Positions 1 to 59,702 of a DNA stretch of 59,702 nt are shown piece by piece. The position numbers and the translations under genes were made by a program. This DNA comes from a virus (lineage: Duplodnaviria; Caudoviricetes). Location: positions 1 through 59,702 of the IMG/VR virus record IMGVR_UViG_3300020398_000001. The stretch is one strand, 5' to 3'. Under the pieces are notes generated by a model that saw nothing but the letters and a program-made list of their open reading frames with translations, had not been told where the DNA came from and did no database searches. Position 1 is the stretch's first letter; every line of letters begins with the position of its first letter.

Positions 1-77
1 CCAGCAGCAGCGAACGATAGATTGCCGCTTGCATCTGTGACAAGCGCTTGACCTACAGTGCCGTCGACATCTGGAAA
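1..77. repeat. 77-bp direct repeat identical to 59626-59702 (circular-assembly overlap)
   Basis: Exact match of both ends; an ORF reads in frame through the junction; 77 is a common assembler k-mer. Confidence 0.95.
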
Positions 78-188
78 AGATATTTCGGCGTCACCTATTT
101 TAACCTTTTGGTTTCCCTTGCCTTTTAACTTCAGTGCGGTGTCAGTGCCGGTCGAAGCCTGAACCAAATCTGCTCGTAATGTTGACAT
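1..188 (-). CDS. 5' part of a 167-aa tail-fibre linker/adaptor protein spanning the circular junction (188->1, then 59625->59310)
   Basis: ATG at 188 with SD GGAG; MSTLRADLVQASTGTDTALKLKGKGNQKVKIG...FPDVDGTVGQALVTDASGNLSF; in frame with ORF 59310..59555. Confidence 0.85.
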   Translation of the reverse strand, partial: MSTLRADLVQASTGTDTALKLKGKGNQKVKIGDAEISFPDVDGTVGQALVTDASGNLSFAAA

Positions 189-200
189 CTTGCTCTCCGA

Positions 201-1877
201 TTAGATAATCACACAGGTTCCTTGACAGTCCAGAACCACACCAGAATCCACGTCTAACGGGCCTGCTACACTTGCATTCGTGGAAGTTTCAATTGTAGTG
301 CTGACGTCCATGTTAGTGTTGTTGACTCTGAATAGATCTTTTTTCCCGTTTTGAAGATCGCCGTGAGTAGTGCCAGAGCCAATAAAATATCCGGCGCCGC
401 CTATGGACCCCCAAGACGAAGCGCCATAACCTTCGAATTGCCCCAGACTTGCATTGAATCTTAGGTATCCGCTGACACCTGTCGGGCGCTGGGCCGTGGT
501 CCCGGCAGGCATATACGCCGCGCCAGTGCCGGTATTCTTCTCGACAACGGTGGCCGAAGATAGAGCGGCGACTTGCCAAGCTGAGCCGTTGTACACCTTG
601 AGGTTATTGACGGTTGTATTGAAGTACATGTCTCCGGCGGTGAGGGCATCTCCATCGTTGTCTAATGTTGGGTCAGAGCTTTTCGCACCCAAGAAAGTGT
701 CATCGAAATTATCAAGCGCTGCTTCAGCCGCAGTCTTCGCAGTCTCCGCTGCTGTCTGCGCTGTTTCAGCTGCGGCCTTGGCTGTCTCGGATGCGGTTTT
801 TGCTGTGTCTGATGCAGTTGCCGATGTCGCGCTTGCGGTTGCGCTGGCAGCCGATGCTGTAGCTGAAGTAGAAGAATTTGTGGCTTGAGTAGCAGCGGTG
901 CCGGAACTTGATGCGGCAGCAGTAGCACTAGCGGCACTTTTTGCAGAATGATGGAGTGATGAATAACCTGATCCATCTACGGCTGAATCTTCAGCCTGTG
1001 TCGCCCAATCCTTTGCAGACCCATCGCCAACCGTTGTACCTAACGCCCATTCCTTCGCAGCGTAATTTGTGCCGTCTACAGTAGCGCCAGTTGTCTGCGC
1101 CCAATCTTTAGCAGACCCACCAAGTGTCGCTCCTGTCATCGACGAGCCTTGCGCCCAATTTTTAGCAGAGCGGTCGTTAGTTCCTGCGCCGTTTACTTGG
1201 TTAGTATCCTGCGACCAAGATTTAGCACTGCCACCAGTGGTGGCCGCAGTGCCAATAGCGTATTCTTTCGCGCTGTATTCTGAGGTATCAACTGCTGCAC
1301 CAGTTGTTGTAGCCCATTCCTTTGCGGCTCCCTTGCCAGATGTTGTTGTGACACCTGTGCCGCCGATTGCGTATGCTTTGGCTGAGTAATCTGTGGAGGA
1401 TATTTGGCCGTCCGTCTTGCTCGCCCAGTCCTTGGCCTCGGATACGTCTACAATTCTTGTCGTGTTGGAACTGGCAATAAAGGCTGCTTCATTTGCGTAG
1501 GTTGCACCGGCAGAAAGGCCGGTGACAATGTAGACGTCTTTGGCAGCTACAGTGACTATATCGAAATTCTGGTATGTGTTGCTACTGTTGAAGACACCAC
1601 GCTGACCGAATAGATAGGTGACGTCTGTCCAGCCGGTAGATGGCCCAGCAAACTGGCCGACACGAACTTGGAATTTATCAGTGGCGGGGTCGAGCCTGAA
1701 TTCAAAGTTGTCTGAGCGGAAAGCCCCGGAAGCAGCCGGGTCGAACAAGTCCCCCAGAAGATCGTAGACTGTGCGGTCCCCAATCTCCATTGCCTCCATA
1801 TATGTGTCTAAGATCCACTCCCCTGTCTTGGAGGAAACAAATCTTAGTTGTTCGCCTGTTGGTCTGGTTTCAGCCAT
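201..1877 (-). CDS. Tail fibre protein (558 aa)
   Basis: About nine (S/A/E)AKx(W/Y)(A/S) repeats; Ala/Ser/Thr-rich shaft; FDDTFLGAKSSDPTLDNDGDAL...YFNT and PAGTTAQRP...LRFN...FEGY motifs typical of marine phage fibres. Confidence 0.8.
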   Translation of the reverse strand: MAETRPTGEQLRFVSSKTGEWILDTYMEAMEIGDRTVYDLLGDLFDPAASGAFRSDNFEFRLDPATDKFQVRVGQFAGPSTGWTDVTYLFGQRGVFNSSNTYQNFDIVTVAAKDVYIVTGLSAGATYANEAAFIASSNTTRIVDVSEAKDWASKTDGQISSTDYSAKAYAIGGTGVTTTSGKGAAKEWATTTGAAVDTSEYSAKEYAIGTAATTGGSAKSWSQDTNQVNGAGTNDRSAKNWAQGSSMTGATLGGSAKDWAQTTGATVDGTNYAAKEWALGTTVGDGSAKDWATQAEDSAVDGSGYSSLHHSAKSAASATAAASSSGTAATQATNSSTSATASAASATASATSATASDTAKTASETAKAAAETAQTAAETAKTAAEAALDNFDDTFLGAKSSDPTLDNDGDALTAGDMYFNTTVNNLKVYNGSAWQVAALSSATVVEKNTGTGAAYMPAGTTAQRPTGVSGYLRFNASLGQFEGYGASSWGSIGGAGYFIGSGTTHGDLQNGKKDLFRVNNTNMDVSTTIETSTNASVAGPLDVDSGVVLDCQGTCVII

Positions 1878-28376: not shown

Positions 28377-31300
28377 TTGCCACTGCTACTAGATTTTTCC
28401 TTTGCTGGAGGAAGCACTGCGTCTACCATATTCTCACGCGTAAATCTATTTTGGCCAACAAATGGGACACGGCTTGCTACCTCTCTTAGCGCCTGTCGTC
28501 GTTTGCCGGGTGGCCCTTCTGTTCCTTCTATACCTAAGTCCAGCAAGCCAGCGCCTGTGTTCCACGCTGATCCTAGCAAACCAACGGAAGGCCCACCTAA
28601 TGCTCCCAACATTCTTAATGTGCCATAAGCGCCGTCGTCTGCACTTTCAACACTTGAATGTATCATGTCTCCGAACAACCCAAATCCACCCAGTAACGCG
28701 AATCCCATTAGATAATGACCAATATACTTGTCTACATCCGTACCGTGGTATTTAGGATTATAACCAAAAGCCGACATGAAAGCCTCGGCACCTCGCCCAG
28801 CCATAGTCTCGCTAATCCTGTGCGCTCTGGTTTCGGCGCTTCTGTTGTCTTCGCCTCCCCGGAATTGGATAAAATCTTTAGCGGTGTTTGCCGCTAGGCC
28901 ACCGGCTGGGCCTAATGTAAACAGAAGTCCTACTCTGGCAGGGTTGCCTACCCCTCGCACACGATCAGGGTCCTTCAATTTCCACCAACCCATGTCATGC
29001 CCAAAAAGTTTTGTGTCGTTTACCAGAACTTCATTGACTAATCTTCCCATCATCAACGGGAATGTTTTTAACTGGGCTACCAGTGCCATAGTAGGAGTCT
29101 GTGCCCAATGAGGAACATCATTTGCGTTCGGCACAAATGTCGCCTCCTTGGAAAACTTTATCATGGCCTCGGCAAACAATTTATGGTGGGCGCCACCATC
29201 AGGCAAACTAGCATCTGTCGTCGCCGCTATTAAGCCTGACTCTAGGCCATCAAGTGAAATGTGCGCCTTAGGGCCAGAGGGTAAGTATTCCTCCAACCCA
29301 TAGACCCGTAGAAATCTCCTTGCTACTTTATATTTTCTTGATTGCTTTGAGTCTGGAAGACCCGGCCTGTACTGCGCGTTGGCTATTCTTTGCTGTGCTT
29401 TAAATGATTCGTAACCAATAGCGGCGGATACCTTCGACATAAAATCTGTCCAAGGTGTAAGCAGGGTGGCGTTGTGAAAGGCGGTGCTTAATTTACCGTC
29501 TGTTGCCCCATATCCGTAGACCATTCGTTCATGGACTATATTCTCAATGGCTGTGCCAGTATTTCGGAACATGGTTCTGTAGTCTGAATCAGTGGCGTAT
29601 CTTCTCCATGCTTTTAAGGCAGACCCCATGCTTCCAGATCTAATAACAGGAAGAATAACATCCCCCATAGACGTAAACATCGTGTATGACAGCAATGTAA
29701 TATTATTAAATTGTCTAATGGCTCTCGAAGCCTGCAATCCGGGCTTGCCTAGCGCCCCAAGCACTGGTTTTTTGTTGTAAACCGACATCATATTATCAAG
29801 GTGATCATAATGAGTGCTGTTGATTCTTTTGAAGAGATGTCCCTCAGGAGTCTTGGAATCGTCCAAGGCGCCTAAGATTGCTTCCATCCGAACTTCATAT
29901 GGCTTGGGTAGTTTGCCACCACTAGATGGGATCAGAGTTTTTTCACCAAGTTCTCTTAATAAGAATTCTGCACCCGGTCGGCCCTCTCTTAAATGAGTAT
30001 CAATGATATCATCGACCCATGCCTTTTGTTGATCCGGGGAAAGACGTCCATCGGAGAATGGCATCTGAGTAGTAAGTGTCATCATTACTGGAGAATGACC
30101 GCTCTCTCCAATGTAGTCACCAGTGTCTTGGTCAAAAGTTATTCGTTCCCCTGTCGATGCTGTTTTCCTGAATACTTTATTAGCAGTTAGTAGCCTGTGT
30201 ATTGCCTCTTTCCCGCCTGACATAACTGATTGGTAATCATTTAGGCCATGAGTATTCATTCCGAATTTGTCTACCATTAAATATCTACGCGTAGACGCTT
30301 CAAAATATTTGGTAAGGATAAAATCTATGTCACCCTCAAGGAATGGCTCCAAGTCTTTGAGAGCCGAAGGGTGTTTGTCTAAGTGTATAATTCTACTGAA
30401 ATCTATGTTCTCAGCGGCAGATGACGTCTTGGCATGCTCTGGGAATATGATGCCGTCACTGGTGTCTTCCTGAAGTCTGTTTGCCACCGCACGGGCGCTG
30501 GCTTCAAGCCCCTCTCGACTGGACTCATCTACTTCAATCCCCTTGGCCAGCCTCTCTATTGTGAAATAGCGGACTAATGCGTCTATAAATTCAGGGGTGT
30601 TTGCCTTGATAGCCTCTCCTCTCCAAATTTGTGGGAAATACTTATCTCCTCTGTCGCCCATCCATTGCCCAGCGGCAACAAGAGCCTTGCGTTCGTTAAT
30701 AAACGCAGCCTGAATAGATTCTGCGACATCTCTTTCCTTTGTTGTGAGAGACTTGAATTGCCTGCTATCGTTTCCACGTCTAAGCGCCCTTACAATTCTT
30801 CCCCAGCTTTCGGGTTGACCCACAATCTTACCAACAGCCCGGCCCGCGGCAGATCTACCAAAGCGGCCTAATGTCCCAATCTCCCCTACCTTAGACCCCC
30901 ATCTTTGGGCAGCATTTTTGGCGTCAGGCAATTCCTGCAATTGATCCTTTAGCTTGAAATATATACTGGCGAAACGTCTATGGTGCTGCGGGAAAAATCC
31001 ACCAAACCAATCAGCTGCCCAATGGAATCCGTCCCGATCCATGCGCTCTGAATTATTACGCAAGTGTATGTTGCTCAGAAGACGCACTTGTTCGACATTA
31101 CCTTCTGTGAAGGGACCGCGCTTGCGCTTCCATCTATCAAGCATCTCTGCCTCTGCCGGAGGCATCCCCTCTGCCTCCAGATCGTCCGGCAAACTACCGG
31201 CGTTTCTTCCATCATTAACAATCGTGTTGTTCATATCACGACGTAAGACATCGTTCGCAGCACCTTCAAAGTCGCTGTAATAAATTCTCGCGTCACGATC

Positions 31301-37300: not shown

Positions 37301-39304
37301 AAGCCTAGCAGGGCCTCCCCCAAATGGGATAGCCCTTACGGGGGCAGGAGGGACGGCGACTTCTGGTGCAACAGTAGTGTCAGGCTCTACAGTTGTATCT
37401 ACCGGCTTTGGTGTGGCCTCCTTGGCTGTTTTACCCGTGCCTTTAGCGGCTTCTCTGCCGAGTCTTTCTAAATACTTTTCTTTCCAACCGGGAATTTTTT
37501 CAATATTCCCTGCACCTATTTCCTTGTGCCTATTTAGCCCTTTGAGTGCCGTATTCTTGTGTTGCTCCAGCCATAGACGTATGTCGTCTTCACTTACCCT
37601 TTTATCAATAGCTTCGCTTACTGCCTTCGCTCTGGATTTTGCATTTTTTGGCCACGGGATATCAGAAGCTAGGTTATCAGGATCAACTGGCGTGTAGGCT
37701 TGAGCAGTGGCGAGAGTTTCTACTGGAACCTCTCCTACCACTGGGGCCTCTCCCTCTGCCGTTGTTACGTCAGGGGCCGTTGCTGTCTCTGTTGACGGTC
37801 GTGACGCAAGTTCGGCGCGCTTAATCTGATCGTCTTGGGTTTCAGGATCTCCGTTTTTTGTTCTTTGTAGGGCTGCTCTAAAATCTTCTACTTCTGCCCT
37901 CAGTGCGATCCCTTCCTTCGACGCTTTCTTACGGGTCGCGCCGACTGACGATCCTCTTGGCTCATCTATATCTTTCGCTTGATTTATGAGCCTATGAGCG
38001 TTTTGCTGGTGGCTCTTTAACCTATCATGTAAGTTTAGTAGACCCCGATAATCCGTGTCCTTTGCTACTTCTGCGTCAGTAAGCACATCCCGCTTTTGAC
38101 GTATTCTTTCGTTCACAGCCCTAATGCGTTCGGTAAGATCGTCACGCCAAGACGCGTCTATCCCATATTCCTCTAGTGCCCTGTCTTCGGCTAATTTTAA
38201 TTCTTCTTCGTCGCTTAATTTCGGTTCAGTTGTTTTTGCAGCATCAGCAGCATCAGCCTCTTGCTGTGCCACCTCTGCGGCTCTGTCTGCGCGCAAAGTA
38301 GCTCTGAATTCTGGTGTATCACCAATCTTCTCACGCGCACGTTCTTTGCCTATTACCGCGGCGCCTTCACCGCTGTATTTTGCTGTGATATCTGGATAGT
38401 CTTCGTCTGGTATTGCTTGAGGTGATCTTGTCCCGCCGAAGAACTCCCTCGCCCCGGATGGTCCCATAGCCGTGATATCTTGCTCGGTGTAGCCACGAGC
38501 CTGCAATTCATCTAGCTGTTTTTCTGCGCTTAGATGCTTAAACGGTTGGAAATCAGCGCTGTATCTGGCGCCCAAAGCGCCAGTAGTACCACCTATGGCA
38601 GCGCCTATACCGGCTCCGGCCGCGGCGCCAACCCCAACAGCCAATGCACCTCTCCCAAGAGAATACTCATCCTGAAGGCCAAGATGTATATCCCGTATCT
38701 GACGTGAAGTGTCTATTGCCCCCTCTTGGACGCCACTGATAATGCCCTCAGACGCAGCGCCACGCTTGGCGCCAGCCCATGCTGCCTTCGCCATATACTT
38801 ATTGGCTCTGTTTTGTAGGAGTAATACCCTAGCGGCATGACCGCCAGCCTTCAGGCCACTAAGTCCGGGGACAAGATTTAATGGGTCCGTGATAGCTGCA
38901 TAAGCTACGCCGGGAATCGCTTCCCATCCCCTGCCACCTTCTTGCCAGAAATGAGGCATCTGTCTCCAGACGTTCTCAATCCGACGCATACGTAGTCGTT
39001 GATTGGGATCAGTGTTAGCGGCGTAGACCGCCTCTCCGACTGCGGAAAAGGAGTTTAAATCAGCAAAGTTTCGATCCTGATAGAACCTATCTCTTAGGTC
39101 CTCATCGGTGTCGAAAAATTCATTTCTTTGTTGGTAATATACCCTGAGATCACTAAGGAATCTCGGATCGTAGAGAACCCTCTTTGGATCTATATTTAAT
39201 GAATAGTCATCTGGGTGGAAGTCTTGGGATGGAGCAGATTGTTGTCTAACAAGTTCCCGGCTTTGGGCAAGACGTTCTGCTGAGTTTGATGTCTTGGGTG
39301 GCAT
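28346..39304 (-). CDS. Giant internal virion/ejection 'polyvalent' protein (3652 aa)
   Basis: Last of the ejection genes; two zincin HEXXH motifs with downstream E; ART-PolyVal-like segment. Confidence 0.85.
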   Translation of the reverse strand: MPPKTSNSAERLAQSRELVRQQSAPSQDFHPDDYSLNIDPKRVLYDPRFLSDLRVYYQQRNEFFDTDEDLRDRFYQDRNFADLNSFSAVGEAVYAANTDPNQRLRMRRIENVWRQMPHFWQEGGRGWEAIPGVAYAAITDPLNLVPGLSGLKAGGHAARVLLLQNRANKYMAKAAWAGAKRGAASEGIISGVQEGAIDTSRQIRDIHLGLQDEYSLGRGALAVGVGAAAGAGIGAAIGGTTGALGARYSADFQPFKHLSAEKQLDELQARGYTEQDITAMGPSGAREFFGGTRSPQAIPDEDYPDITAKYSGEGAAVIGKERAREKIGDTPEFRATLRADRAAEVAQQEADAADAAKTTEPKLSDEEELKLAEDRALEEYGIDASWRDDLTERIRAVNERIRQKRDVLTDAEVAKDTDYRGLLNLHDRLKSHQQNAHRLINQAKDIDEPRGSSVGATRKKASKEGIALRAEVEDFRAALQRTKNGDPETQDDQIKRAELASRPSTETATAPDVTTAEGEAPVVGEVPVETLATAQAYTPVDPDNLASDIPWPKNAKSRAKAVSEAIDKRVSEDDIRLWLEQHKNTALKGLNRHKEIGAGNIEKIPGWKEKYLERLGREAAKGTGKTAKEATPKPVDTTVEPDTTVAPEVAVPPAPVRAIPFGGGPARLDKEGKPANPRAWAEQLKLSDEDIRAYIDAVGEEDALSKTKKIGSAQLKKIAKWKRERPSTPEGQPEVRLLSAEEVDGDVIEIRGVLEKLAAGAGGMTADDLRNTAKTLANSLQAQRGLQGTELEHAVDSVMKVWEEAWALDQANIQRFEALIDDADSSQMVASGGEPPSEIFEKLLTPQEMDIYNERLTHHITQTFGGSLKPEDVESARALAFQDTKRMTAARKVQTTSKKEQPRSAQAKIERAALLTTAGKDPATGRIQNILRSGRGTEWRDDGTGKMIPDRSIIGAGIGAREDINLNPQNLSRTEAWQIAEKEVEPYRELTQKEIRSLKKRLDKAEAAGDEAGVRTLSRLLRKPTPEELKIAFNGSRVTRSGVNLVDKSKTLGIVPYEAADGERIHSPHGSVLARPGQIVFADIKQKQVFDSEEYALRHRGVDASTEPTRATQPRITPEQVAEVIARNADTPENIAPELKALATQPTPVEYPKAGMSLNSPKGDMVIMLRYKGKQNIDEEVDLRVPSPRQIKEGATIKDIIGQKAGPKSDPNMWEKRWVPAEADYHMINSRLEAWEQSGLAKMEVNETEGRVRDSMNTRFRGDATGRGRPLILNSTEADGVTVRFAKWEIEKIAERIKLARARPELGNSIERVWSMEADTVRNRTIGEFSLEDEPVINIPVKVANTVVNFLDTQSNWPARAQDLEEHIDAIYMLHSRIRESVPEGFVLPEADRAAAVNNIGKIFSRFDPDVIAEAKSFIESLGGSPHHAPIIIPASKDTSPLENAYVFAGGKEQRLISNFFGQTPKLVRGGPVASHVVINPNDELMPALPRLYHEVAHWAYQHILTPEDRAEFWDAMRKYYSPEGGLRADHVRHKLAVKEVAPFTSADGKPLSFHSNSTDSPQEFFAQQFSQWATQGASEGVWNDENYWRRIAAYVKDVFSRYFNKDLIDPDLEPLFSKILPEPERLKWMWKSAGEPETKAGRHHLFKFTQLKDLQLKLEIALKNKDADGNLKNDPQNIVYAAGEIRDWIARQMSYDTVKRKYHHYDTLAKTAKILRHRLLDLSHIFKGFRAIGDPATQDWINEGIIDVETLGEFLGGTHQYTEAEYELDSAGFQIIDSGYDPAFAESKLVAEQAEEIRQLYEGPWVPTSMAGTFPAKGKFGEYTSDSQSVVMGHTSLQHAILLVKESLEDAYAKAEGLSMQDIPPSARGRGIKRGRRAVNQIVRRKQRSKANKKSHKSVQAASEKIRKGLKVKPAAASKEVDAATSQSLKSLTRTELLVEYGDHVGTPKGRQIELFLLEKSKTWPVQEQQIPITKEIRQAKKHELEASYLEAFRQGDWDKVNQLSYEMSRRIHQRKDSIKIQPLISEMRAFVDNEIDANRGLSSDDGIPQWASGGARVMLSYLTHRDPEIQHVARTMLYRMLNLAGKSTSRIGEVNVMTVADVAALAGVEPVGNPSAVFSDFTGPEFSKLRKDLRKLSIGLNKGEVTPIQIMHEIGHATLRAAQFPDDEMTAIRAAFKLSGPDSRKLFGTRASKNYPKLTNDAIEDVAAEEWFVEGWAQYLSERVTKNDAFKLSSDTTLENVQLRGDLNKAVDRLVEYVSYVVNGLIGRDDIKQTYRRMMFYGDMFEKPAGDPVYTAFKGQLTVPYQHAARVARRSLLESSDGRRELISDFVRTGNRFTSVNGEPVVYYHANTWGSQRLSNVDELEMSSSNTAGRPDRSGGYGISLYLEPKRAGRLRDNIWDQDSPEGSTPVQSTKLLDSINAESKPGKGWTKGDREELLALAQDSFETKQEISEIQARLAFQDNVRRGFPTTNFFEDASDTRSRLTELLDLDASIEERMGELGVDITPRVTPTYVRAVNTAAFDANTLYASDAPLIQRSLAWLHQNRIIDDEDVRDFHGELFGMSAAARRGEQDADYTQDTEITGADLLEVLEELIAGGVSTSRYNKTNPPEVIRGMLQEFGYDSMSIFHSRTYRASDGRMVDAGSHGLVAFDTDQVRHIEAATFSDRDARIYYSDFEGAANDVLRRDMNNTIVNDGRNAGSLPDDLEAEGMPPAEAEMLDRWKRKRGPFTEGNVEQVRLLSNIHLRNNSERMDRDGFHWAADWFGGFFPQHHRRFASIYFKLKDQLQELPDAKNAAQRWGSKVGEIGTLGRFGRSAAGRAVGKIVGQPESWGRIVRALRRGNDSRQFKSLTTKERDVAESIQAAFINERKALVAAGQWMGDRGDKYFPQIWRGEAIKANTPEFIDALVRYFTIERLAKGIEVDESSREGLEASARAVANRLQEDTSDGIIFPEHAKTSSAAENIDFSRIIHLDKHPSALKDLEPFLEGDIDFILTKYFEASTRRYLMVDKFGMNTHGLNDYQSVMSGGKEAIHRLLTANKVFRKTASTGERITFDQDTGDYIGESGHSPVMMTLTTQMPFSDGRLSPDQQKAWVDDIIDTHLREGRPGAEFLLRELGEKTLIPSSGGKLPKPYEVRMEAILGALDDSKTPEGHLFKRINSTHYDHLDNMMSVYNKKPVLGALGKPGLQASRAIRQFNNITLLSYTMFTSMGDVILPVIRSGSMGSALKAWRRYATDSDYRTMFRNTGTAIENIVHERMVYGYGATDGKLSTAFHNATLLTPWTDFMSKVSAAIGYESFKAQQRIANAQYRPGLPDSKQSRKYKVARRFLRVYGLEEYLPSGPKAHISLDGLESGLIAATTDASLPDGGAHHKLFAEAMIKFSKEATFVPNANDVPHWAQTPTMALVAQLKTFPLMMGRLVNEVLVNDTKLFGHDMGWWKLKDPDRVRGVGNPARVGLLFTLGPAGGLAANTAKDFIQFRGGEDNRSAETRAHRISETMAGRGAEAFMSAFGYNPKYHGTDVDKYIGHYLMGFALLGGFGLFGDMIHSSVESADDGAYGTLRMLGALGGPSVGLLGSAWNTGAGLLDLGIEGTEGPPGKRRQALREVASRVPFVGQNRFTRENMVDAVLPPAKEKSSSSGKWKLNRGTLR

Positions 39305-45621: not shown

Positions 45622-46035
45622 TTATTTCTCCAAAAAATTACATTCATCTTTCAACATTCCCCAGACTAAAGCATTTTCGTTATCGGCGAAATACTGTCTT
45701 AAACACCCTTCCCGTTTGAATCCCCATTGCCCTGCGAGCTTGACTGCTTTTTCATTTCCTTCTCTACAAATTGCTGAGACACGGATAACATTCTTACGCT
45801 TGAACGGATATTCGGAAATAAATCGCAAATATTGGCGCTGACACCAACTTGAGTCCCTGATGGCAATGTGAGCTTGGATGTCCCGTCCAGTGTATCCTGT
45901 GAAGATAACCCCACCGGCCATTCTCCCGTCGACAAGAAATCCATATCCTTCTGCGTCATCCCAAATTTTAGAGAGTTGATTTTGATGGGCGACCCAGTGT
46001 GCAATTTGTTTTTCATTACTTATTACTTCAATCAC
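45622..46035 (-). CDS. GNAT-family acetyltransferase
   Basis: RVSAICREGNEKAVKLAGQWGFKREGCLRQY. Confidence 0.8.
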   Translation of the reverse strand: MIEVISNEKQIAHWVAHQNQLSKIWDDAEGYGFLVDGRMAGGVIFTGYTGRDIQAHIAIRDSSWCQRQYLRFISEYPFKRKNVIRVSAICREGNEKAVKLAGQWGFKREGCLRQYFADNENALVWGMLKDECNFLEK

Positions 46036-47597
46036 GAACTAATTACCGAAATTGCCAGAGAGACTTCTAGGGTGTTACCTGAAGCATTGTTGGTCACCGT
46101 GTATCCCACAGACTTTGAGGCCGTAGTCCCGTCGATTTCAATCGGTGTCCCAAGTGTAATTTCATTTGGTGTACTGGATACAGAATGTATTGTGCCTACG
46201 TCTACGCCACCTACCCTTACTGTGACAGAACATGTCCCAGACGTCAGACGGAGCGCTACTCCGTCTATGCGTATTTTCTGCTTCCAGATACGGGTGATGT
46301 CTGTTGATGCATTAGCCACTGTAACAATTGTGCTGTACAGGGTATCGGTTGATAAGACAGTCGGAAGCTGTGTGAATGGCAGTCGTCCTGTACTATCTAA
46401 TTGGGCAACTCCATTCGCCGCTCCCTTTTGGGTAACCGGGATGACAGAAGATAAATCTACACTTGAGTATTCAAGTGCTGTTCCTGTTGCGTTTACCCGA
46501 ACGAATTGAGACGCGTCTGAGGATGAGAAAGTAGGCAAACTACTTTCTGGCGACGTCCGTAGAAACTGAGTGCCGTCGTAGAATTTTAATTGATTTGGTG
46601 ACTGACTTGTATCTAACCACAGGTCGCCACTGGCGGGCGCAGAGGGGGTGGTGCCAGACACAGTAATTTTTGTGGCGGTGGACAGGATTGTAACCAAGCC
46701 ATCTATTTTTGCTTGGGCAATGTCTGCATCAGCAATTTGTAATTTACTAAAGGGGATTTTCCCAGTTGCAGTATCGGTAAATCCGCTTTCCAGCATCAGC
46801 CCTGTAACTGCCTGACTGCTAATATTCTCTACGGTAATGATGGATACAAGGTTCCCGGCTGCGACATTGGTATTAAACTGTACCGTATTTGACGCCGGGA
46901 TCAGAGTGTAGTCATTGGTGCCGCCCTCTCTTTGAAGGAGGCCGTTCTTGTAAACCAGAAGTTTCGTATCTTCGTCAAAAGTAAACGGGAAATTCAGCTG
47001 GCCTGCGCCAGTAGTAAGAGTGTCAGTTCGTGTGAATCCTGTGATTGATGTAGTTCTGACTTTGACAATGGTAACAACTTGGCCTGTGGTCAGACCTGAG
47101 TTGAAAGTAACTGCGCCTGTACTTGTCGAGCCAGCGGTGGGACTTGATGTGTAGTCGTTAGACCCACCTTCTTGTTTTAAAACTCCATCTACCCATACGA
47201 GCAAGCTATCGGTAGAGACGTGAGCGTAATCGAAAACTGTTTGGGCAGAGGTTGCTGCAACATCTTGGCGTGTATGGAAAATAGGTGCCCCTATTTCACC
47301 CACTACAGTACCATCTGCACCCTTTAATGATGCAAGCGAAGCAAGGGTAATCCATCCAGTATCATCATCGGCATATGTCCCGACTCTGTACTGTAGGCCC
47401 TCTGAGCTATCGTTTCTTATTTCTATCGGCCCTACGAAGGTGCCTGTAGAATCAAATAAGATAGACAGCAATTCACCAACCGTCTTATCGCCCAGTTCGC
47501 TGGCATTAAGATAGCGGACGACATTTTCAAATTCGGCGTTAATGTTGCCGGAACTGCCGTAGTTCTGTGGATTCTGTTGTCGTAATCTTGCCATCAC
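46032..47597 (-). CDS. Tail protein/fibre
   Basis: NINAEFENVV anchor; two V(W/Y)xxGxLxxEGGxNDYT repeats; SGDLWLDT; KGAANGVAQLD. Confidence 0.75.
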   Translation of the reverse strand: MMARLRQQNPQNYGSSGNINAEFENVVRYLNASELGDKTVGELLSILFDSTGTFVGPIEIRNDSSEGLQYRVGTYADDDTGWITLASLASLKGADGTVVGEIGAPIFHTRQDVAATSAQTVFDYAHVSTDSLLVWVDGVLKQEGGSNDYTSSPTAGSTSTGAVTFNSGLTTGQVVTIVKVRTTSITGFTRTDTLTTGAGQLNFPFTFDEDTKLLVYKNGLLQREGGTNDYTLIPASNTVQFNTNVAAGNLVSIITVENISSQAVTGLMLESGFTDTATGKIPFSKLQIADADIAQAKIDGLVTILSTATKITVSGTTPSAPASGDLWLDTSQSPNQLKFYDGTQFLRTSPESSLPTFSSSDASQFVRVNATGTALEYSSVDLSSVIPVTQKGAANGVAQLDSTGRLPFTQLPTVLSTDTLYSTIVTVANASTDITRIWKQKIRIDGVALRLTSGTCSVTVRVGGVDVGTIHSVSSTPNEITLGTPIEIDGTTASKSVGYTVTNNASGNTLEVSLAISVISS

Positions 47598-53199: not shown

Positions 53200-54396
53200 T
53201 CATAATTGCAGTACGGAATCAAAGGATTTGACTCCAAATACTTTCTCGCAGGCATGGCAATCCCAACATCTATTTTTACAGGTAGAGAGTATTTTACTTA
53301 AACTACGGCCCTTTTTTGTATGCCATATAGAGTTAAGTTCGTCTTCACTATGTTGCTGAGTATGGGATAAATTAGTCCACCCTTGAATCGCCCACCTATC
53401 CACTAAATATGGAGATAATTTTTTATTATATATTTCCTTAAAGGAATCTGCGTATTCAAGTGAGCGCGACAACAACCCGCTTTCTAAGTCTATCTTTTCT
53501 CCACCCTTCTCAAAACCTGACCAGCACATTCTGCCATTTGGATCGACACCTTGATTCTGCCCCAATCTACCGCTGAATTTAAAAACATCCACATTATCGA
53601 AGAAGTTATCCACAATTTCTCTGGTAGCCATTGATATATTAACACCCAGTCTAGGCAGCTGTTCCGAATGAGGCCATCTCCAGTGAGCGCAAGTCGTGGG
53701 GAAAGTTTGCCAGTAATTGGAATCTGTCTTGGAGAGGGGCGCCTGCCATATGTCATGCTCTTGTTTGAAGGGACAGCTTGGCATACATGACTCAGACGCA
53801 AGAAGCGATGTTTCTATATTTAGATTCTTAGTTGCCGTGCGAATTTCAGTCAGTAGATCAATATCTCTGTTAAGGGAGCGATCTAAAAGTATAGTTTTGT
53901 AGCCTAAGGCAGCGTAATCATATACTTCCTGCGTTGTTTTCACTAAATGGTTTACTGTATTCTTCCAATTCATTTCAGGGAATTCTGCCTGCAAAGCCCC
54001 CGTTCTCATTAGATGGGCCGAACTAATAGTGCAAATTCTTAAGCCTCTTTTATAATACTGTTTTATATAACTCAGCATTTGTTTTATGACATTAAGGTCA
54101 GAGGCTAGCTCCTTCCCCATATCCATAGAATTTAATGTCAGAGATATCTCTACACCAAATTCGTCTTGTATTTTAAAGAGATTGTCTACTTGCTTGGGAG
54201 ACGCAGTGACTCCCATAACTTCGCCGTATGTTTTTTGCTGGCCGTCGTGTTCGTAGACGAATTCTGCGCCGAAATATATATCGCGTACTTCGTCTTTGTA
54301 TTCCTGCTTTGAATTCTTAAATAAATTATAGAATAGGTCGTCTTCTGTATAACTATCCCAATGAGGGATAGAGAACTTTTTATTACAGTCTAACAC
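53200..54396 (-). CDS. Peptidase-U32-like (Fe-S TIM-barrel) protein
   Basis: LTLNS, ILLDRSLNRDIDLL, ESCMPSCP...H, FKFSGR, C-terminal CKNRCWDCHAC. Confidence 0.7.
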   Translation of the reverse strand: MLDCNKKFSIPHWDSYTEDDLFYNLFKNSKQEYKDEVRDIYFGAEFVYEHDGQQKTYGEVMGVTASPKQVDNLFKIQDEFGVEISLTLNSMDMGKELASDLNVIKQMLSYIKQYYKRGLRICTISSAHLMRTGALQAEFPEMNWKNTVNHLVKTTQEVYDYAALGYKTILLDRSLNRDIDLLTEIRTATKNLNIETSLLASESCMPSCPFKQEHDIWQAPLSKTDSNYWQTFPTTCAHWRWPHSEQLPRLGVNISMATREIVDNFFDNVDVFKFSGRLGQNQGVDPNGRMCWSGFEKGGEKIDLESGLLSRSLEYADSFKEIYNKKLSPYLVDRWAIQGWTNLSHTQQHSEDELNSIWHTKKGRSLSKILSTCKNRCWDCHACEKVFGVKSFDSVLQL

Positions 54397-54792
54397 TTAA
54401 TCAGGATCTAAAATTCTATCTTTATCTATTGGATCAACCGCAGCAACTTTAGGAATGTCTGATTTTACTTTATCAATGTGGTCGATGAATGTCGTAGTCC
54501 CATCACGCATGTCACGATAGATAGCGTCAAGCTGATCGCCAAAAGGACCGTAAGCAAGTTGGCGTTCAAATTTCATGGTCTCTCGTTGGCCTTCGGGTGT
54601 TGCCTCATGGGCAGCTCTCTGATTAGTAAAACTACCATCGTCAGGGTTACGATTCCAAGCACCGCGTTCTACAGTGTCATCACTGCACTCGTGCCATTCT
54701 AGGCTTGGATGAACCTCAAACCGCTCCTCGATGGTATCCACCACCTGTGCAACACGATGGTTTCGTAAAGTGTCTACAAGAACGTGCTTCAT
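54397..54792 (-). CDS. Tail-fibre assembly/chaperone-like protein
   Basis: FEVHPSLEWHEC; RQLAYGPFGDQLDAIY...VKSDIPK; follows a fibre gene. Confidence 0.65.
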   Translation of the reverse strand: MKHVLVDTLRNHRVAQVVDTIEERFEVHPSLEWHECSDDTVERGAWNRNPDDGSFTNQRAAHEATPEGQRETMKFERQLAYGPFGDQLDAIYRDMRDGTTTFIDHIDKVKSDIPKVAAVDPIDKDRILDPD

Positions 54793-54801
54793 GGCTATCT
54801 C

Positions 54802-55623
54802 CTACGCGTATTCCCAGATGATTACAAGACCGGGCTTCGTAGCTGAGCCTTGCGTATAGCCGTTGTACACACCCATGCCACCGGCCCCATAAGCGATATA
54901 AGTATGCAAGGTGGCGTCAGTGGTGTCGGGACTCCCCGGAGTACACCCACCAAAATAACTAGAACCGCCTGTCGCAGACATACTGTTGACGGCGGAACCC
55001 CCGCCGCCTCCTACGATATTAATATCGCCTCCAGTACCATCCCCTCCAAATCCACCACGACTGGCTTGGACACTACCAGCGGTGTATCCACCAGTTGCCG
55101 AGACGTAACTCCCGAAGGAGGATGTATTCCCGTTTGGTGTGCCAACAGTGACCGTAACTGTGGGAAGTGAGCTAACATCGCAAATCTTTTCTGCGTAACC
55201 TCCTGCCCCACCACCTCTTTGTCCATTTGATCCATGTGCGCCAGAACCCACTAATTGGACCCTGACTGTTGAAACACCAGCCGGTCTTGTCCAAGTTCCA
55301 CTTGCAGTAAATGCTTGAACAGATTTCAATCCTCCGCCTTCTGCTGCGTCTACCCATTCAAGAGTAGAGCCACCAGCAGCAGTTGCCAAAGTTTGCCCGG
55401 CTGTGCCTGTCCCGACATCTGTTCCATCTGTTCCATCTGTGCCTCCGGCTGACAACAATTCCCAATTTGATCCGGTGGCGAAGGCGCCACCAGATGTATG
55501 AGCGAGGATGCACATATATGCGCTGCCACTGCTCTGAACTATGTCGTCTACAACGTAAGCAGTAGTCGCGGCCCATGCCCCTTTCCAAACTGTTCTGACT
55601 CTGCCTAAATTGATAGTAGTCAT
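54802..55623 (-). CDS. Glycine-rich tail fibre/spike
   Basis: INLGRVRTVWKGAW...YVVDDIV; QAFTASGTWTRPAGV...VQLVG...GGAGG...GLVIIWEY. Confidence 0.8.
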   Translation of the reverse strand: MTTINLGRVRTVWKGAWAATTAYVVDDIVQSSGSAYMCILAHTSGGAFATGSNWELLSAGGTDGTDGTDVGTGTAGQTLATAAGGSTLEWVDAAEGGGLKSVQAFTASGTWTRPAGVSTVRVQLVGSGAHGSNGQRGGGAGGYAEKICDVSSLPTVTVTVGTPNGNTSSFGSYVSATGGYTAGSVQASRGGFGGDGTGGDINIVGGGGGSAVNSMSATGGSSYFGGCTPGSPDTTDATLHTYIAYGAGGMGVYNGYTQGSATKPGLVIIWEYA

Positions 55624-55638
55624 CTCTTGTTCCTTTCC

Positions 55639-55869
55639 TTAGTAAGTAACTACTAAGTCGCCGTTACCGTCTATTGAATACGTCTGATTGGGAGATCCAA
55701 CGATGACCATGTCATAAGGATCGAACCCAGAAGCAGCCGCGCCTGCGCGGAGGTCATCTGTAATATCGTATGCCAGATCGTTGCCCTTGTACCAAAGTAG
55801 GTTGCCGCTAACGACCCTGAAAGCATGGTGTATATTGTTAACGACCTTGGCATTGCCTATATACCCCAT
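55639..55869 (-). CDS. Small fibre adaptor (MGYIGN type)
   Basis: MGYIGN N-terminus; YSIDGNGDLVVTY C-terminus. Confidence 0.7.
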   Translation of the reverse strand: MGYIGNAKVVNNIHHAFRVVSGNLLWYKGNDLAYDITDDLRAGAAASGFDPYDMVIVGSPNQTYSIDGNGDLVVTY

Positions 55870-56207
55870 TAAGTAATCTCCATCACGCTCAAAGCTACAT
55901 CAAGCGCAGCGGTGACAGACGCAAGCGCTTTTACGATGTCTCCTGTCTCAAGCACTACTTTCCCCTCAATAGCTTCAAGCGTCCCGCCAGTAGGAATAGA
56001 TACACTTTTGATTAGGTAGACGTCGTCCGCGTTCTCGCCTGCGCTAGACGCGGTGACAATCTGTACGTCTACGGTAATTGCAGACGCAGATTTATTTGCC
56101 ATCATGGCGCCAATCATAACTGCGGTTGTCGCCGCTGGCACTGTGTAGACTGTCTCAAGGGAAGTTCCTACACTAGCCCCGGTTTTTAGTTTGAAAGTAT
56201 TCGCCAT
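55869..56207 (-). CDS. Fibre connector protein (MANTFK type)
   Basis: MANTFK...VYTVPAAT...KVVLETGD...SVMEIT. Confidence 0.8.
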   Translation of the reverse strand: MANTFKLKTGASVGTSLETVYTVPAATTAVMIGAMMANKSASAITVDVQIVTASSAGENADDVYLIKSVSIPTGGTLEAIEGKVVLETGDIVKALASVTAALDVALSVMEIT

Positions 56208-56210
56208 TGG

Positions 56211-56294
56211 CTAGGCCCCCTTCGGGAATCTCATTTTAATTTCAGCGGCCAGATTAGGGACTCCTGTCCCCGCGCCTTGAATTGTGCTTGTCAT
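56211..56294 (-). pseudogene. 27-codon relic of a deleted fibre + chaperone cassette
   Basis: MTSTIQGAGTGVPNLAA|EIKMRFPKGA: first half matches the start region of 56792..57568, second half the end of 56530..56784. Confidence 0.7.
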
Positions 56295-56298
56295 CCAA

Positions 56299-56526
56299 TT
56301 ATCCTAGCGCAATGGCCATTGCTGTGGCATCGTCTATGGTCGCAATATTTCTGAAGACGAGATTTGCCGACCCGTCTGTCACAAGTCCTTGTCCATCTGC
56401 CCCATCTCCATTAGGAAAGAGTAGGTTGCTTATCCCTATTTTCACTCTCCCCGTTCCACGTCCCTTGATTTCCAGATTGGTGTCATCTGTACTCGCTTCT
56501 ACGATATTTGCTCTCAGGGTCGACAT
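56299..56526 (-). CDS. Short fibre linker (MSTLRAN...AMAIALG)
   Basis: Paralogous to the junction-spanning protein over most of its length. Confidence 0.8.
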   Translation of the reverse strand: MSTLRANIVEASTDDTNLEIKGRGTGRVKIGISNLLFPNGDGADGQGLVTDGSANLVFRNIATIDDATAMAIALG

Positions 56527-56529
56527 GTC

Positions 56530-56784
56530 CTAATCCTTTGGAAATCTGGTTTTAATCTCTAACCTTTTCTCGGCATGTGTACCGGCAGGAATTTCACCAG
56601 CATTTTCCTGAAAAAATAAGGGATCTGACTCGTTTACGTATGCAACTTGCCTTTGCGCGATTGCTTCCGCTGCCCTAAGAGTAGGAGCCGCTGCCTTTGA
56701 TGCCTCTATATCAGCTTCGTAAGCCGCTTCCTCTGCCGGGGTGAAAGCTATCTGCACCCCATCAGTATTGTGATATCGTGTCAT
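56530..56784 (-). CDS. Tail-fibre assembly-like protein
   Basis: FTPAEEA...RQVAYVNESDPLFF...EIKTRFPK. Confidence 0.7.
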   Translation of the reverse strand: MTRYHNTDGVQIAFTPAEEAAYEADIEASKAAAPTLRAAEAIAQRQVAYVNESDPLFFQENAGEIPAGTHAEKRLEIKTRFPKD

Positions 56785-56791
56785 ACTTCAC

Positions 56792-57568
56792 CTATGCCTT
56801 TTTCCAGCCATACATTCTAATACTCCCGCCAGCAGCAAAATTCTGCCCGTTCCAGTAGAATCGAACAGCGTCTACTACATCCAAATCAAGCCTATGGTAC
56901 TCACCCCCTCCTACATAACGGGCGCCAGCACTGGTCTGAGCAGTCATTTGCCAATCAAACATAGTAAAGGTATTTGCATCACCCGCTCCCCAGACTTTAA
57001 CATAGCCACTAAACCCAGAGTTTGTGCCGGTATGTGTAGTTGAAAAGCCACCAAACCACTCTACATAACTTTCGTCGCTGTACCCCTGTTGAAATGCCCT
57101 GCCGCCCGTGTTGTGGTAAAATTTGAATTTCCCGTAGTTTGCGCCTCCTGTGTCGTAGGACGAGCCGCCATCGCTGCTGCTAAGAAATCTAAATCTTTGC
57201 TCACTACCTGTGCCTGTTCCGTTTGGCTGGACATTCGTCAGGGCAAATTCATAATGGTCATACAAGGATGAGTCGAAACCTGTGAAATTCATATTTGTAG
57301 TAGACGTGCCTGATGGCTCGATGGTTTGTATAAGAGTGGTTGCGCCACCCGCAGCTGCCTGAAATGTCGGGGGAGTTGATGCACCTGTAGACGTAATAAC
57401 TTGACCGGATGTTCCCCCTCCCCTAATAGACGTTAGAGGGACACCAGCTGTGCCACCAACTTTAAAATTAGCGCTTAAATTGGGAACGCCGGTGCCTTTC
57501 CCGCTGACAATCAGATCAGTATTTGTCCCAGATAATGGAGTTATTTCATCAACTTGAATTTTCGACAA
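56792..57568 (-). CDS. Tail fibre/receptor-binding protein (TTG start)
   Basis: MSKIQVD...SGKGTGVPNL; GTSGQVITS; TLIQTI...YDHY...GSIRMYG head domain. Confidence 0.75.
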   Translation of the reverse strand: MSKIQVDEITPLSGTNTDLIVSGKGTGVPNLSANFKVGGTAGVPLTSIRGGGTSGQVITSTGASTPPTFQAAAGGATTLIQTIEPSGTSTTNMNFTGFDSSLYDHYEFALTNVQPNGTGTGSEQRFRFLSSSDGGSSYDTGGANYGKFKFYHNTGGRAFQQGYSDESYVEWFGGFSTTHTGTNSGFSGYVKVWGAGDANTFTMFDWQMTAQTSAGARYVGGGEYHRLDLDVVDAVRFYWNGQNFAAGGSIRMYGWKKA

Positions 57569-57581
57569 TGGCTCTACTCCT

Positions 57582-58019
57582 TTATGACCCCGGCTTTTCG
57601 GGCCAAACCGGATTATCTGGTTGGGCCGTAGCTGAAGGTAGATCTCTTAAAGCTCTTCGCCAAGCCGCCCACTCTTCTTTTTCTACATTTGAGAGTGGAC
57701 TGTCATTAGCCTGTGTCCAGTCACTTTGATGTAATTCATGGTCCCTTGTCGTCCTTAAATCACGCCAATCAGTAGTAATTTCCTCAGGAGTTTTGGGACG
57801 AACACGATGCACAATGACTACACGGTCTTCTTCGATGTTAATTTGGTCCGTGTCTCTTGTTTGCCCCGGTGCAGAGACAGTCTCAGTTACAACAACAGGA
57901 AGCCATCCCCATCGCTTTAACTCTTCATCAGTGGCAAGGTGCAAGCCGCTGATGTTGCGCCATGATTTAGGCAGCGGGCCAATATTGCTTACTTGGCCGT
58001 TTTCGATCTGGGCATACAT
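57582..58019 (-). CDS. Tail-fibre assembly chaperone
   Basis: WRDLRTTRDHELHQSDWTQANDSPL...WAAWRRALRDLP...VWPEKP. Confidence 0.85.
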   Translation of the reverse strand: MYAQIENGQVSNIGPLPKSWRNISGLHLATDEELKRWGWLPVVVTETVSAPGQTRDTDQINIEEDRVVIVHRVRPKTPEEITTDWRDLRTTRDHELHQSDWTQANDSPLSNVEKEEWAAWRRALRDLPSATAQPDNPVWPEKPGS

Positions 58020-58030
58020 TTAATTTTCCC

Positions 58031-58801
58031 CTACCATGTTAAGCCATAAGAATTAGCAATGTAATTTTTCGTTTGGATTCGTACGCCTCCACTATTATGC
58101 CAATAGAGAAGAACCTCTGCTATTTCGCCCCTGAAATACTGACCGGGATACTGAGAGCCACCGATTAAAGGAGACTGATTCTGATCTCCAGTATTCCAAG
58201 AAAGACTCTGTGAAACTGTAGTCAGCCCCGTTGTTTCCATTGTCGTGATTCCTGTGGTATCATTTCGATACACAAGGGTAGAATATGTCGTGCCTACTAC
58301 ATGACCGGATTGCTGTAGTGTATTGTTACCAAAAGACATGTGCGTTGCGCTACCCGGACCAACCCAGTAATACCCCTGCTGACCTCCCCATATCTCTGCA
58401 TAAGAATAGCTATTACCTGTTGTGGCAGTCCTGAAAACCACGAATATCATTGCATTATCGTAATTTCCGTTAAAGAACTCCTTGCTCCACGGCGTTGAGG
58501 CAGGTAAAGGGCCTGAAGCGAATTTAAAATTAAAGCTGCCGGTATTCGGGAACGTAATACTGGGGTGGTCATTAAAATTAGAATCTGAGGCATTTAGTGT
58601 TGGCTTATAATTAGTATCTTGTGGAACACGGTGTCTCCCGTTTCCACTCTTATCAGTCCACTGCGAAATAGCGCCTCCCGATTCAACTACCTCATCTGCC
58701 CTAAACCACCCCTCCAGAAAACTGGAATTAGGTTCCCCTACATAATCTGGAGGACCAGAGTTACCAGCAGCAGCCATCATTCCCTTTTTATAGCTAGTCA
58801 A
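58031..58801 (-). CDS. ConA/LamG-like lectin receptor-binding protein
   Basis: GWFRAD...ISQWTDKSGNGRH...FRGEIAEVLLY...YIANSYGL. Confidence 0.75.
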   Translation of the reverse strand: MTSYKKGMMAAAGNSGPPDYVGEPNSSFLEGWFRADEVVESGGAISQWTDKSGNGRHRVPQDTNYKPTLNASDSNFNDHPSITFPNTGSFNFKFASGPLPASTPWSKEFFNGNYDNAMIFVVFRTATTGNSYSYAEIWGGQQGYYWVGPGSATHMSFGNNTLQQSGHVVGTTYSTLVYRNDTTGITTMETTGLTTVSQSLSWNTGDQNQSPLIGGSQYPGQYFRGEIAEVLLYWHNSGGVRIQTKNYIANSYGLTW

Positions 58802-58810
58802 TGATCGTTC

Positions 58811-59299
58811 CTAACTAGAATCAAGGCTGGAAGCCATGCCATGCCAGACAGTCCCGGCATCGTGGGTTACAAAAACCAGCAAGTCTATTCCCGCTGCTGT
58901 GAGTGTCGGCGCCGTTGCTCCCGGCCAACGTGTTCCTGCTGGCCAGTTTATTGTTTGTGATCCCGCGTTCGTCAGGATAAGAGAGAACCCACAAAGCTCA
59001 TCTGCCCCTGTGGGGTTCGAAAATGTAAAGGTGGTTGTGCTTGTGTCTATCGTCGCACTTACGCTGTTACCAAGTGTTAGATCTATGTCTTGAGTGCCGC
59101 CGCCTACCGAGCCGATTGCGTTGGTAACTTCACCGTAGTCCAGTAAATTTACTTGCTGAAAAGTATTGTCGCCCGCGTCCACAGCCCCAGCAAATGTTGT
59201 TGCGCTCGATACTGCGACACCGCCCGTCCCTGCTCCCGATAATGTAAGTGTGCTATCGGTAGTCCGGGCAGTGACATTATCAGCTTTTAAAGTAGACAA
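58811..59299 (-). CDS. Fibre linker/adaptor (TTG start, MSTLKAD...)
   Basis: IDLTLGN...TTFTFSNP...INWPAGTRWPGATAPTLT...DLLVFVT. Confidence 0.8.
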   Translation of the reverse strand: MSTLKADNVTARTTDSTLTLSGAGTGGVAVSSATTFAGAVDAGDNTFQQVNLLDYGEVTNAIGSVGGGTQDIDLTLGNSVSATIDTSTTTFTFSNPTGADELCGFSLILTNAGSQTINWPAGTRWPGATAPTLTAAGIDLLVFVTHDAGTVWHGMASSLDSS

Positions 59300-59309
59300 T
59301 TTACTTCTC

Positions 59310-59702
59310 CTATATTATTGCCAGCACACCTGCGACAGAAAGCGTCACTGAGGGGTCTACTCCAAAAGGCCCGGTACAGCTTGCATTTGTGCTTGCTGCG
59401 ATTGTAGTGCTAACTGTTAGTGTGCCTGAGTTCACGCGAAAAATATCCGCTAAGCCATTTGTGCTGTCCCCCGTTATGCCGTTGTTGCCTTGGAAATATC
59501 CCGCTCCCCCCGGTGCCGGGACGGCAGACGTCCAGATTGTTCCGTTAGACGTCAAAAGATTCCCGACCGCGCCCGCGGCCGTCAGCCCTGTCCCGCCATC
59601 TGGAGTGCTAACTGGAGAAGCTACGCCAGCAGCAGCGAACGATAGATTGCCGCTTGCATCTGTGACAAGCGCTTGACCTACAGTGCCGTCGACATCTGGA
59701 AA
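59310..59702 (-). CDS. 3' part of the junction-spanning fibre linker protein
   Basis: C-terminus GAGYFQG...DIFRVNS...STTIAASTNASCTGPFGVD...LAII is clearly paralogous to the C-terminus of 201..1877. Confidence 0.85.
   Translation of the reverse strand, partial: FPDVDGTVGQALVTDASGNLSFAAAGVASPVSTPDGGTGLTAAGAVGNLLTSNGTIWTSAVPAPGGAGYFQGNNGITGDSTNGLADIFRVNSGTLTVSTTIAASTNASCTGPFGVDPSVTLSVAGVLAII
59626..59702. repeat. Second copy of the 77-bp terminal overlap
   Basis: Identical to 1-77. Confidence 0.95.

Follow-up and report, generated by a model that had tools for sequence, protein, structure and literature searches.

The tail-fibre module

The subject of this report is a tail-fibre module carried by a marine virus of the Caudoviricetes (Duplodnaviria), IMG/VR virus record IMGVR_UViG_3300020398_000001, all 59,702 nucleotides (nt) of which were analysed and are called the window here. 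The record has an exact terminal repeat of 77 base pairs (bp; window 1–77 = 59626–59702) and is thus circular, with an assembled length of 59,625 bp; the 'junction' of the window is an assembly cut inside one of the fibre genes, gene B. The module comprises 12 genes, named A to L, which all lie on the minus strand and run from position 1877 down across the junction to 54397. An original prediction, made from the letters of the sequence, had described a system of about 13 genes continuing across the junction; the count is 12, or 13 if the small conserved gene at 1870–2148 is included, and the crossing is real, the B open reading frame (ORF) being whole on two other contigs (L002 and L004).

The window can be assigned to a CRP-810-type podophage by its major capsid protein, which aligns with the counterpart in Roseobacter phage CRP-810 (OR671924) at 74% identity over 97% of its length, by the terminase–portal–small gene–tail fibre order common to both and by the N-terminus of its fibre. 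CRP-810 represents a proposed family with 251 uncultured relatives (PMC11288001). A megablast search with 9.7 kilobases of the module gave no cultured-phage match by DNA, the window has no tRNA genes and there is no excess of promoters or terminators at the cassettes (10 against 11.0 ± 3.7 expected and 4 against 5.7 ± 1.9).

Gene A (201..1877) encodes the primary fibre, a protein of 558 residues with PHROG tail-fibre matches. It consists of a tail anchor (residues 1–214, nt 1236–1877) that is 58% identical to the N-terminus of the CRP-810 fibre gp57, a repeat-rich shaft and a C-terminal domain of ∼66 residues (nt 204–401) that we call the socket, which is found by a socket profile with an E value of 1e-34 at residues 460–558. 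Within the module, only A bears the anchor shared with gp57. The N-terminal part of B (1..188, start codon at 188) has a leader beginning MSTLRAD and the fibre motif FPDVDG..GQ.LVTD; its C-terminal part (59310..59702, the last 77 nt of which repeat nt 1–77) holds a second copy of the socket (nt 59313–59510). The ORF of 167 residues is uninterrupted on L002 and L004, both contiguous IMG/VR contigs, and as library protein P0025, and with a leader at one end and a socket at the other B can be read as an extender. Gene C (58811..59299, 162 residues) joins an MSTLKAD leader to a C-terminal domain of ∼125 residues (...WPGATAPTLT...) that is predicted to dock, and matches PHROG tail-fibre families 7760 and 9017.

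Gene D (58031..58801, 256 residues) has a leader, MTSYKKGMMAAAG, that resembles MPNxKRGMMGAAG leaders, followed by a tip. The tip has no Pfam match at E ≤ 0.1; an Atlas feature score of 0.98 links it to a cluster with Laminin_G_3 (PF13385) in 36% of its members, which is a lead only, and D is possibly a ConA/LamG-like lectin. The Atlas version of D begins at residue 9, read as M (window 58778–58801, minus strand). That the MxxxKKGMMAAAG leader is conserved favours the upstream TTG as the start, and gene callers may often drop such leaders. Gene E (57582..58019, 145 residues) is a tail-fibre assembly chaperone by Pfam (PF16778, Phage_tail_APC, 61.4 bits against a cut-off of 26.6) and by its PHROG tail-fibre assembly families. 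Gene F (56792..57568, 258 residues) has a divergent leader (MSKIQVDEITPLSG) and a head domain; it has no Pfam or PHROG match, and its Atlas matches are unnamed viral clusters. Two leader-bearing genes had been said to start with TTG, and C (59299) and F (57568) do; so does D (58801).

Gene G (56530..56784) encodes a small chaperone-like protein of 84 residues (...EIKTRFPKD) that matches phrog_5714, as does E; G-like proteins also come before MSTL-leader genes at five other loci (L144, L145, L157, L158 and L164). Gene H (56299..56526, 75 residues) is an adaptor that begins with an MSTLRAN leader and finishes in an ...ATAMAIALG tail, and is 47.5% identical to the N-terminus of B. Gene I (55869..56207, 112 residues; phrog_1276, function unknown) is a predicted jelly-roll connector. 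Gene J (55639..55869, 76 residues) has an MGYIGN leader and ends ...YSIDGNGDLVVTY. Gene K (54802..55623, 273 residues; phrog_863) starts MTTINLGRV and has a CBM5/12 module (CBM_5_12, 34.9 bits, above the cut-off of 26.2) and a glycine-rich adhesin-like tip, for which the earlier label 'Gly-rich' falls below the Pfam cut-off (Gly_rich_2, 18.8 bits against 24.3). Gene L (54397..54792, 131 residues; phrog_1787, function unknown) encodes a small protein after the K tip that is chaperone-like by position; it weakly matches CRP-810 gp56, the gene after the fibre of that phage, and is kept after K in a close relative of the window (L222). Weak PHROG links connect E with G (phrog_5714) and G with L (phrog_2687). 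No L-like helper was found after K-like genes in the ten loci examined, where one downstream ORF was weakly G-like and one weakly E-like. Of the proposal that each of three tips is followed by a chaperone-like gene, the part concerning E thus holds by its Pfam domain, and G and L qualify by position and weak PHROG links.

Pfam searches gave A–D and F–L no match beyond the domains named above and, by that route, no relation to T4 gp34, gp35, gp36 or gp37. A and B have no Pfam family at E ≤ 0.1 or at E ≤ 1, so no T4gp10-like branching domain was recognised in them. The whole window has two sockets and four MSTL leaders; the connector, the ...AMAIALG tail, the MGYIG leader and the MMAAAG leader each occur once.

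The socket and the MSTL leader

Both repeated elements of the original prediction, an N-terminal motif common to four genes and a C-terminal domain common to two, were recovered when the 12 proteins were compared with one another (local BLASTP, 12-protein database, composition statistics off). The leaders of B and H are the most alike (47.5% identity over 80 columns, E 2e-18), followed by C and H (38.6% over 44, E 6e-6), B and C (E 8e-5), B and F (E 1e-3) and C and F (E 3e-3). A profile built from 32 leaders from outside the window, run against the 418 window ORFs, independently placed C (3e-5), B (1e-4) and F (0.011) as the top three, all aligned from residue 1; H ranked eighth (E 0.54). Residues 439–558 of A match residues 45–167 of B (36% identity, E 2e-17), with 35 of the last 66 residues identical, and each of the two proteins is followed by an MSTL gene, after 12 nt for A and 10 nt for B. 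The other end-to-start pairings listed in the prediction are present as written.

Whether such motifs adjoin at random across genomes had been set beforehand as the test that could refute the idea, and the adjacency is non-random: the four pairings described in this and the following sections recur side by side in other viral contigs, on otherwise unrelated proteins, and adjacency is also seen in the cultured phages HMO-2011, Nsp-JY18 and Melnitz. For the socket, a scan of IMG/VR yielded 54 loci, with the domain at the protein end in every case. Outside the window's own species there are 50 socket genes, 48 of them with a downstream ORF; this ORF starts M[SG][TE][LIV][KR][AV][DN] in 42 of the 48, and in the other six it has a related leader (MASILNVD, MSSTIKVN, MTQLFVD, MASELYVE and the like). 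The strict start is rare overall (48 of the 2,882 ORFs of the socket loci), and 27 of 32 pairs remain strict once pairs that are at least 90% identical have been removed. Most of these gene pairs overlap by 4 nt. When 1.84 billion representatives were searched with the socket profile, 825 cluster representatives matched at E ≤ 1e-3, of which 400 passed E ≤ 1e-10. Among the 150 best, 147 have the domain running to the C-terminus (140 of them to within two residues), behind very diverse N-terminal parts. No natural socket–leader fusion was found among these 150, and the three with extensions were not leader-like where read.

Socket and leader subtypes go together: all 24 sockets of the F[FV]SL type are paired with M[SG][TS] leaders and all eight of the GPL type with MSE, MAS or MTQ leaders (Fisher p 1e-7, a test that ignores relatedness), and the F[FV]SL class sits on at least five different N-terminal architectures. 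Cultured carriers of the socket are Nostoc phage Nsp-JY18, Microcystis phage Mel-JY33, the Melnitz myophages and HMO-2011 (a Puniceispirillum/SAR116 phage, NC_021864), in which the genes are annotated as hypothetical or as plain 'tail fiber'.

The predicted socket monomer has a mean predicted local distance difference test score (pLDDT) of 75, with values of 80–94 in the last 60 residues. A wide VIA-align search with it returned one row (Z 2.1), the β-helix rungs of an autotransporter passenger, and nothing beyond chance-level rows (E 0.4–1) came from searching the sequences of solved structures with the socket and connector profiles. A complex of three A sockets and three B leaders, predicted from separate alignments and without controls, scored 0.12 against a mark of 0.32, which speaks neither for nor against binding.

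Several further observations concern the socket and its surroundings. Gp64 of Synechococcus phage S-CREM1 (L058, 3905–4840; 311 residues) has a weak socket-like stretch at residues 85–135 (14.8 bits) followed by sequence that is not leader-like; the stretch may be an internal form of the domain. At nine loci (L017, L028, L035, L036, L045, L047, L053, L054 and L055), proteins of ∼930–980 residues ending ...(D/T)RxFDYVA(T/K)G... are followed by socket proteins of 145–151 residues starting MAQHDY(V/T)IxNQTFP, a possible further joint upstream of the socket gene. Most of the T7-like loci L007–L052 (for example L024, 8617–9012) have an MSTLKAD head gene first and then a second, related head gene with a longer and different leader (MSEIITDKLTGKT...); each socket there thus goes with two or three head genes, and Nsp-JY18 has three. 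In CRP-810, an unannotated stretch between gp56 and gp55 (OR671924, 48426–48542) encodes a peptide that is 56% identical to the PAGTTAQRP...RFN repeat preceding the socket of A.

The C-type domain and the MMAAAG leader

Relatives of the last ∼125 residues of C were confirmed in 107 cases, of which 80 were kept for counts; the domain is C-terminal in all 80. A leader like MPNIKRGMMGAAG (the MxxxKKGMMAAAG type, to which that of D belongs) begins 44 of 51 downstream ORFs, against 45 of 1,092 ORFs overall, and the proteins downstream are otherwise unlike D, to which they have no phmmer hits. In one family member (L225) an anchor fibre of 1,237 residues itself ends in a C-type domain, which is followed by a separate MMGAAG-led gene (MVNLKKMLMGAAG).

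The predicted connector and the proposed J–K joint

Gene I has at least 472 relatives in IMG/VR, and neighbours were counted at 80 loci holding 81 connectors. The upstream protein ends A[ML][AS]IALG in 61 of 81 cases, many of them adaptors of 68–89 residues like H; the downstream protein starts MxYxG in 46 of 75 and in an MALTK-like manner in 15 of 75. The background of these patterns is 63 (tail) and 66 (leader) of 1,159 ORFs. The AlphaFold2 model of I is all-β with a pLDDT of 94.7, and 86 predicted viral structures in BFVD match it at E ≤ 0.001, including proteins called virion structural proteins in S-SCSM1, MaMV-DC and S-TIM5 (names as given by the sources). Its best matches among solved structures include the HFTV1 turret protein (8qpg_TD), Ena, ExsF, TNF-like proteins and the jelly-roll end of the phage 7-7-1 fibre; these are weak (Foldseek E 3e-3 to 1e-2, template-modelling scores of 0.4–0.6 and 10–17% identity).

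The end of J, ...SIDGNGDLVVTY, comes directly before the MTTINLGRV start of K. Scored by eye on 23 of 30 non-self loci, seven of the 12 K-like genes with an MTTINLGRV-type start are preceded by a J-like end (...F/Y-S/T-I-N/D-x-N-G-x-L-x-x-T-I/V), and three of these seven proteins are small and MAYIG-led. J and K share a reading frame; between them lie TAA and 15 nt (window 55624–55641), which include a purine-rich stretch (GGAAAGGA) before K, and we read the gap as an ordinary intergenic spacer.

Proposed assembly

Taken together, these adjacencies suggest that separately translated fibre segments probably dock end to end, using conserved joints of four kinds and giving three tips (D, F and K). 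Physical docking, the order of the chain, its stoichiometry and a role in host range are what we infer from the genes. As A is the sole carrier of the anchor, the other members would have to hang on A, directly or by way of another member. A and B end in the socket of ∼66 residues, and B, C, F and H begin with the matching MSTL leader of ∼24 residues. The first branch would run A–B–C–D, with the MMAAAG leader of D seated on the C-terminal domain of C and E as the helper; the second would lead from a socket to F, with G as the helper; and the third would lead from a socket through H, I and J to K, with L as the helper. In this last branch I would be a jelly-roll connector holding the ...AMAIALG tail of H and the MGYIGN leader of J. 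With two sockets for four leaders, the tips might compete for sockets, giving virions with mixed fibres, or share one, giving a branched fibre. The gene order A-B-C-D-E, F-G, H-I-J-K-L fits the same end-to-start grammar, from which we infer the structural order.

A wider proposal is more tentative, and we consider it possible rather than probable: that aquatic phages with unrelated tails share a small set of orthogonal, portable docking joints, among them the socket with the MSTL leader, the C-type domain with the MMGAAG leader and the greasy tail with the jelly roll and the MxYxG leader. These would amount to a readable assembly code by which gene ends reveal the architecture of a fibre, and one socket would take several different leader proteins, so that tips would be mosaic or hetero-oligomeric and a virion would have several receptor specificities.

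Several points weigh against end-to-end docking. F and H have no socket gene directly upstream in the window and, given four leaders for two sockets, the partner assigned to each is a guess. By the independent profile the F leader is borderline (E 0.011) and the H leader weak (E 0.54), so that H depends on its likeness to B. The socket is without a structural match, with nothing below E 5 in a Foldseek search of the PDB, which does not in itself make its fold a new one. The helper roles of G and L come from position, with weak PHROG links. It is the end motif alone that carries the J–K joint, because the relatives of J (three loci, all of one species group) come from the window's own species. 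Finally, the metagenome contigs are interrelated, and the counts overstate their independence even after dereplication.

The excess of leaders and the position of F and H after helper genes rather than sockets would be explained if the leader were a tail-binding or chaperone-recognition signal, each protein attaching alone to the tail or to a shared assembly factor and the adjacency to sockets reflecting operon order; leaders outnumber sockets in HMO-2011 too (at least four to two). We consider this unlikely. The pair is found with T7-like fibres, with the HMO-2011 type and among myophages (Melnitz), settings that differ in their tails and have the socket as their one constant neighbour; the subtypes of socket and leader match across different fibre backbones; and the tail anchor of the family is on A only.

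Relatives and cassette exchange

Members of the family have one, two or many genes at the fibre locus. CRP-810 has the single fibre gp57 of 1,252 residues with the same 214-residue anchor, and the window can be described as the L225 logic cut at two more places, with two extra branches added. In the close relative L222 the F–G cassette lies on the other side of H, in the order X-chaperone-H-F'-G'-I-J-K-L, and a chimera of 287 residues is encoded at 119–982; its first 90 residues are 64% identical to the leader and stalk of F and the rest is 39% identical to the glycine-rich domain of K. As the order differs and the chimera is present, cassettes move between close relatives, and to this extent the swapping of cassettes in the original prediction is borne out.

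This mobility, the break of the chimera after the leader and stalk, and the mosaic nature known for fibre genes (PMC4819975) would also suit conserved ends that are recombination linkers at gene borders, serving homologous cassette exchange with no need for protein contact. The leader DNA has no repeat over 13 nt in the module and a third-codon identity of 0.23–0.46, which is near random, against amino-acid identities of 58–75% among B, C and H; conservation is thus at the protein and not the DNA level, which argues against pure recombination linkers, as does a folded socket that 147 of the 150 best representatives have at their very C-terminus. We regard linkers as quite improbable as the whole explanation, although the two roles could coexist. 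That a single fibre gene was split by stops and is rejoined into one polypeptide by read-through or frameshifting is highly improbable: most socket/leader pairs overlap by ATGA, J and K share a frame 15 nt apart and relatives encode the fibre as one protein of ∼1,240 residues, but every piece begins with a conserved Met-leader, the spacers in the window are 9–15 nt with a purine-rich stretch before K, the stops are retained in three diverged relatives and the lack of fusions among the 150 best socket representatives argues against it.

Comparison with known systems

Docking of separately encoded fibre segments, as we propose it for the window, has known counterparts. In Klebsiella podophages one protein is anchored and further receptor-binding proteins dock through a short conserved N-terminal peptide, as shown experimentally (PMC13352976). 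KP32, K11 and KP34 resemble the window in having one tail anchor, anchorless secondary receptor-binding proteins with a short conserved leader and exchangeable parts (PMC13352976). In the window B, C, F and H share one leader, and D and J carry other conserved leaders. The Klebsiella-type docking domain is internal and T4gp10-like, giving a side branch, whereas the window socket is formed by the last ∼66 residues and has no Pfam family, implying end-to-end joining. There is one joint type there and four in the window, one of them through a separate connector protein; binding is proven there and proposed here.

The long tail fibre of T4 is built from gp34, gp35, gp36 and gp37 with the helpers gp38 and gp57A. 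The window resembles it in having several proteins that would lie end to end, genes that follow the proposed structural order, small proteins that would join the long segments and, behind the tip, a gene for a chaperone; it differs in being a podophage and in having joints made of short peptides and small domains that recur as portable modules. Multi-protein fibres have been proposed for the podophages SIO1 and ICP2 by analogy with T4 (PMC4819975).

A further counterpart is the gp28–gp43 tail-fibre array of HMO-2011, which has the same modules in the same order as the window. Its chain consists of gp43 (...AVAMAIAL), gp42 (a connector, E 2e-36), gp41 (MPYIGQ and a socket, E 7e-13) and gp40 (an MSTLKAD leader, E 2e-14); a second socket, in gp33, is followed by the leaders of gp32, gp31 and gp29, so that leader genes are again in excess. 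This phage differs from the window in its tail and head lineage and in having neither a leader-plus-socket extender like B nor a leader-plus-tail adaptor like H. In its record the genes are called 'tail fiber protein' or hypothetical, and the joints are not described there. CRP-810 itself differs in that a single polypeptide of 1,252 residues is followed by one small gene; its annotated region is free of socket, leader and connector genes. For the connector, the Bacillus Ena fibres and ExsF with the F-Anchor N-terminal peptide (PDB entries 9i0y, 9h3d and 7a02, by entry titles) are built from jelly-roll subunits that hold the terminal peptide of a partner, and the model of I is likewise a jelly roll of ∼110 residues; the likeness is one of fold only and is weak. 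A search of the main texts of the searchable literature found no paper that names the socket, leader or connector modules.

The docking principle is thus already known from Klebsiella phages and T4; what appears to be different here is a terminal docking domain without a family, a separate connector and four chained joint types in one podophage. For the most part, the sequence of a marine phage does not reveal how it recognises its host, and the fibre genes are mosaic and annotated as hypothetical. If the end modules are docking joints, they would show the membership of each fibre and the order of its proteins, account for arrays of numerous small 'tail fiber' genes such as that of HMO-2011 and mark the natural break points of tip exchange. 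With 825 socket clusters and at least 472 connector relatives in IMG/VR, the modules are common, and neither Pfam nor a named PHROG family covers them; giving them names would benefit annotation widely, and the cultured carriers HMO-2011, Melnitz and Nsp-JY18 make the docking idea testable.

Other genes of the window

Directly after the fibre module lies a gene for a protein of 398 residues (53200–54396, minus strand) with a cysteine-rich C-terminal end (...CKNRCWDCHAC...), which occupies the same place in L222; it has no Pfam match at E ≤ 1 and matches only PHROGs of unknown function (1458 and 36869). The virion block contains a single ORF of 3,652 residues (28346–39304, minus strand; from the ORF list). 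In the tail block, outside the module, a protein of 521 residues (46032–47597, minus strand) corresponds to CRP-810 gp41, annotated as 'tail fiber'. It is without a socket and shares an N-terminal stretch of 69 residues with A, a piece of the anchor (39% identity, E 1e-7), and may be a second anchored fibre.

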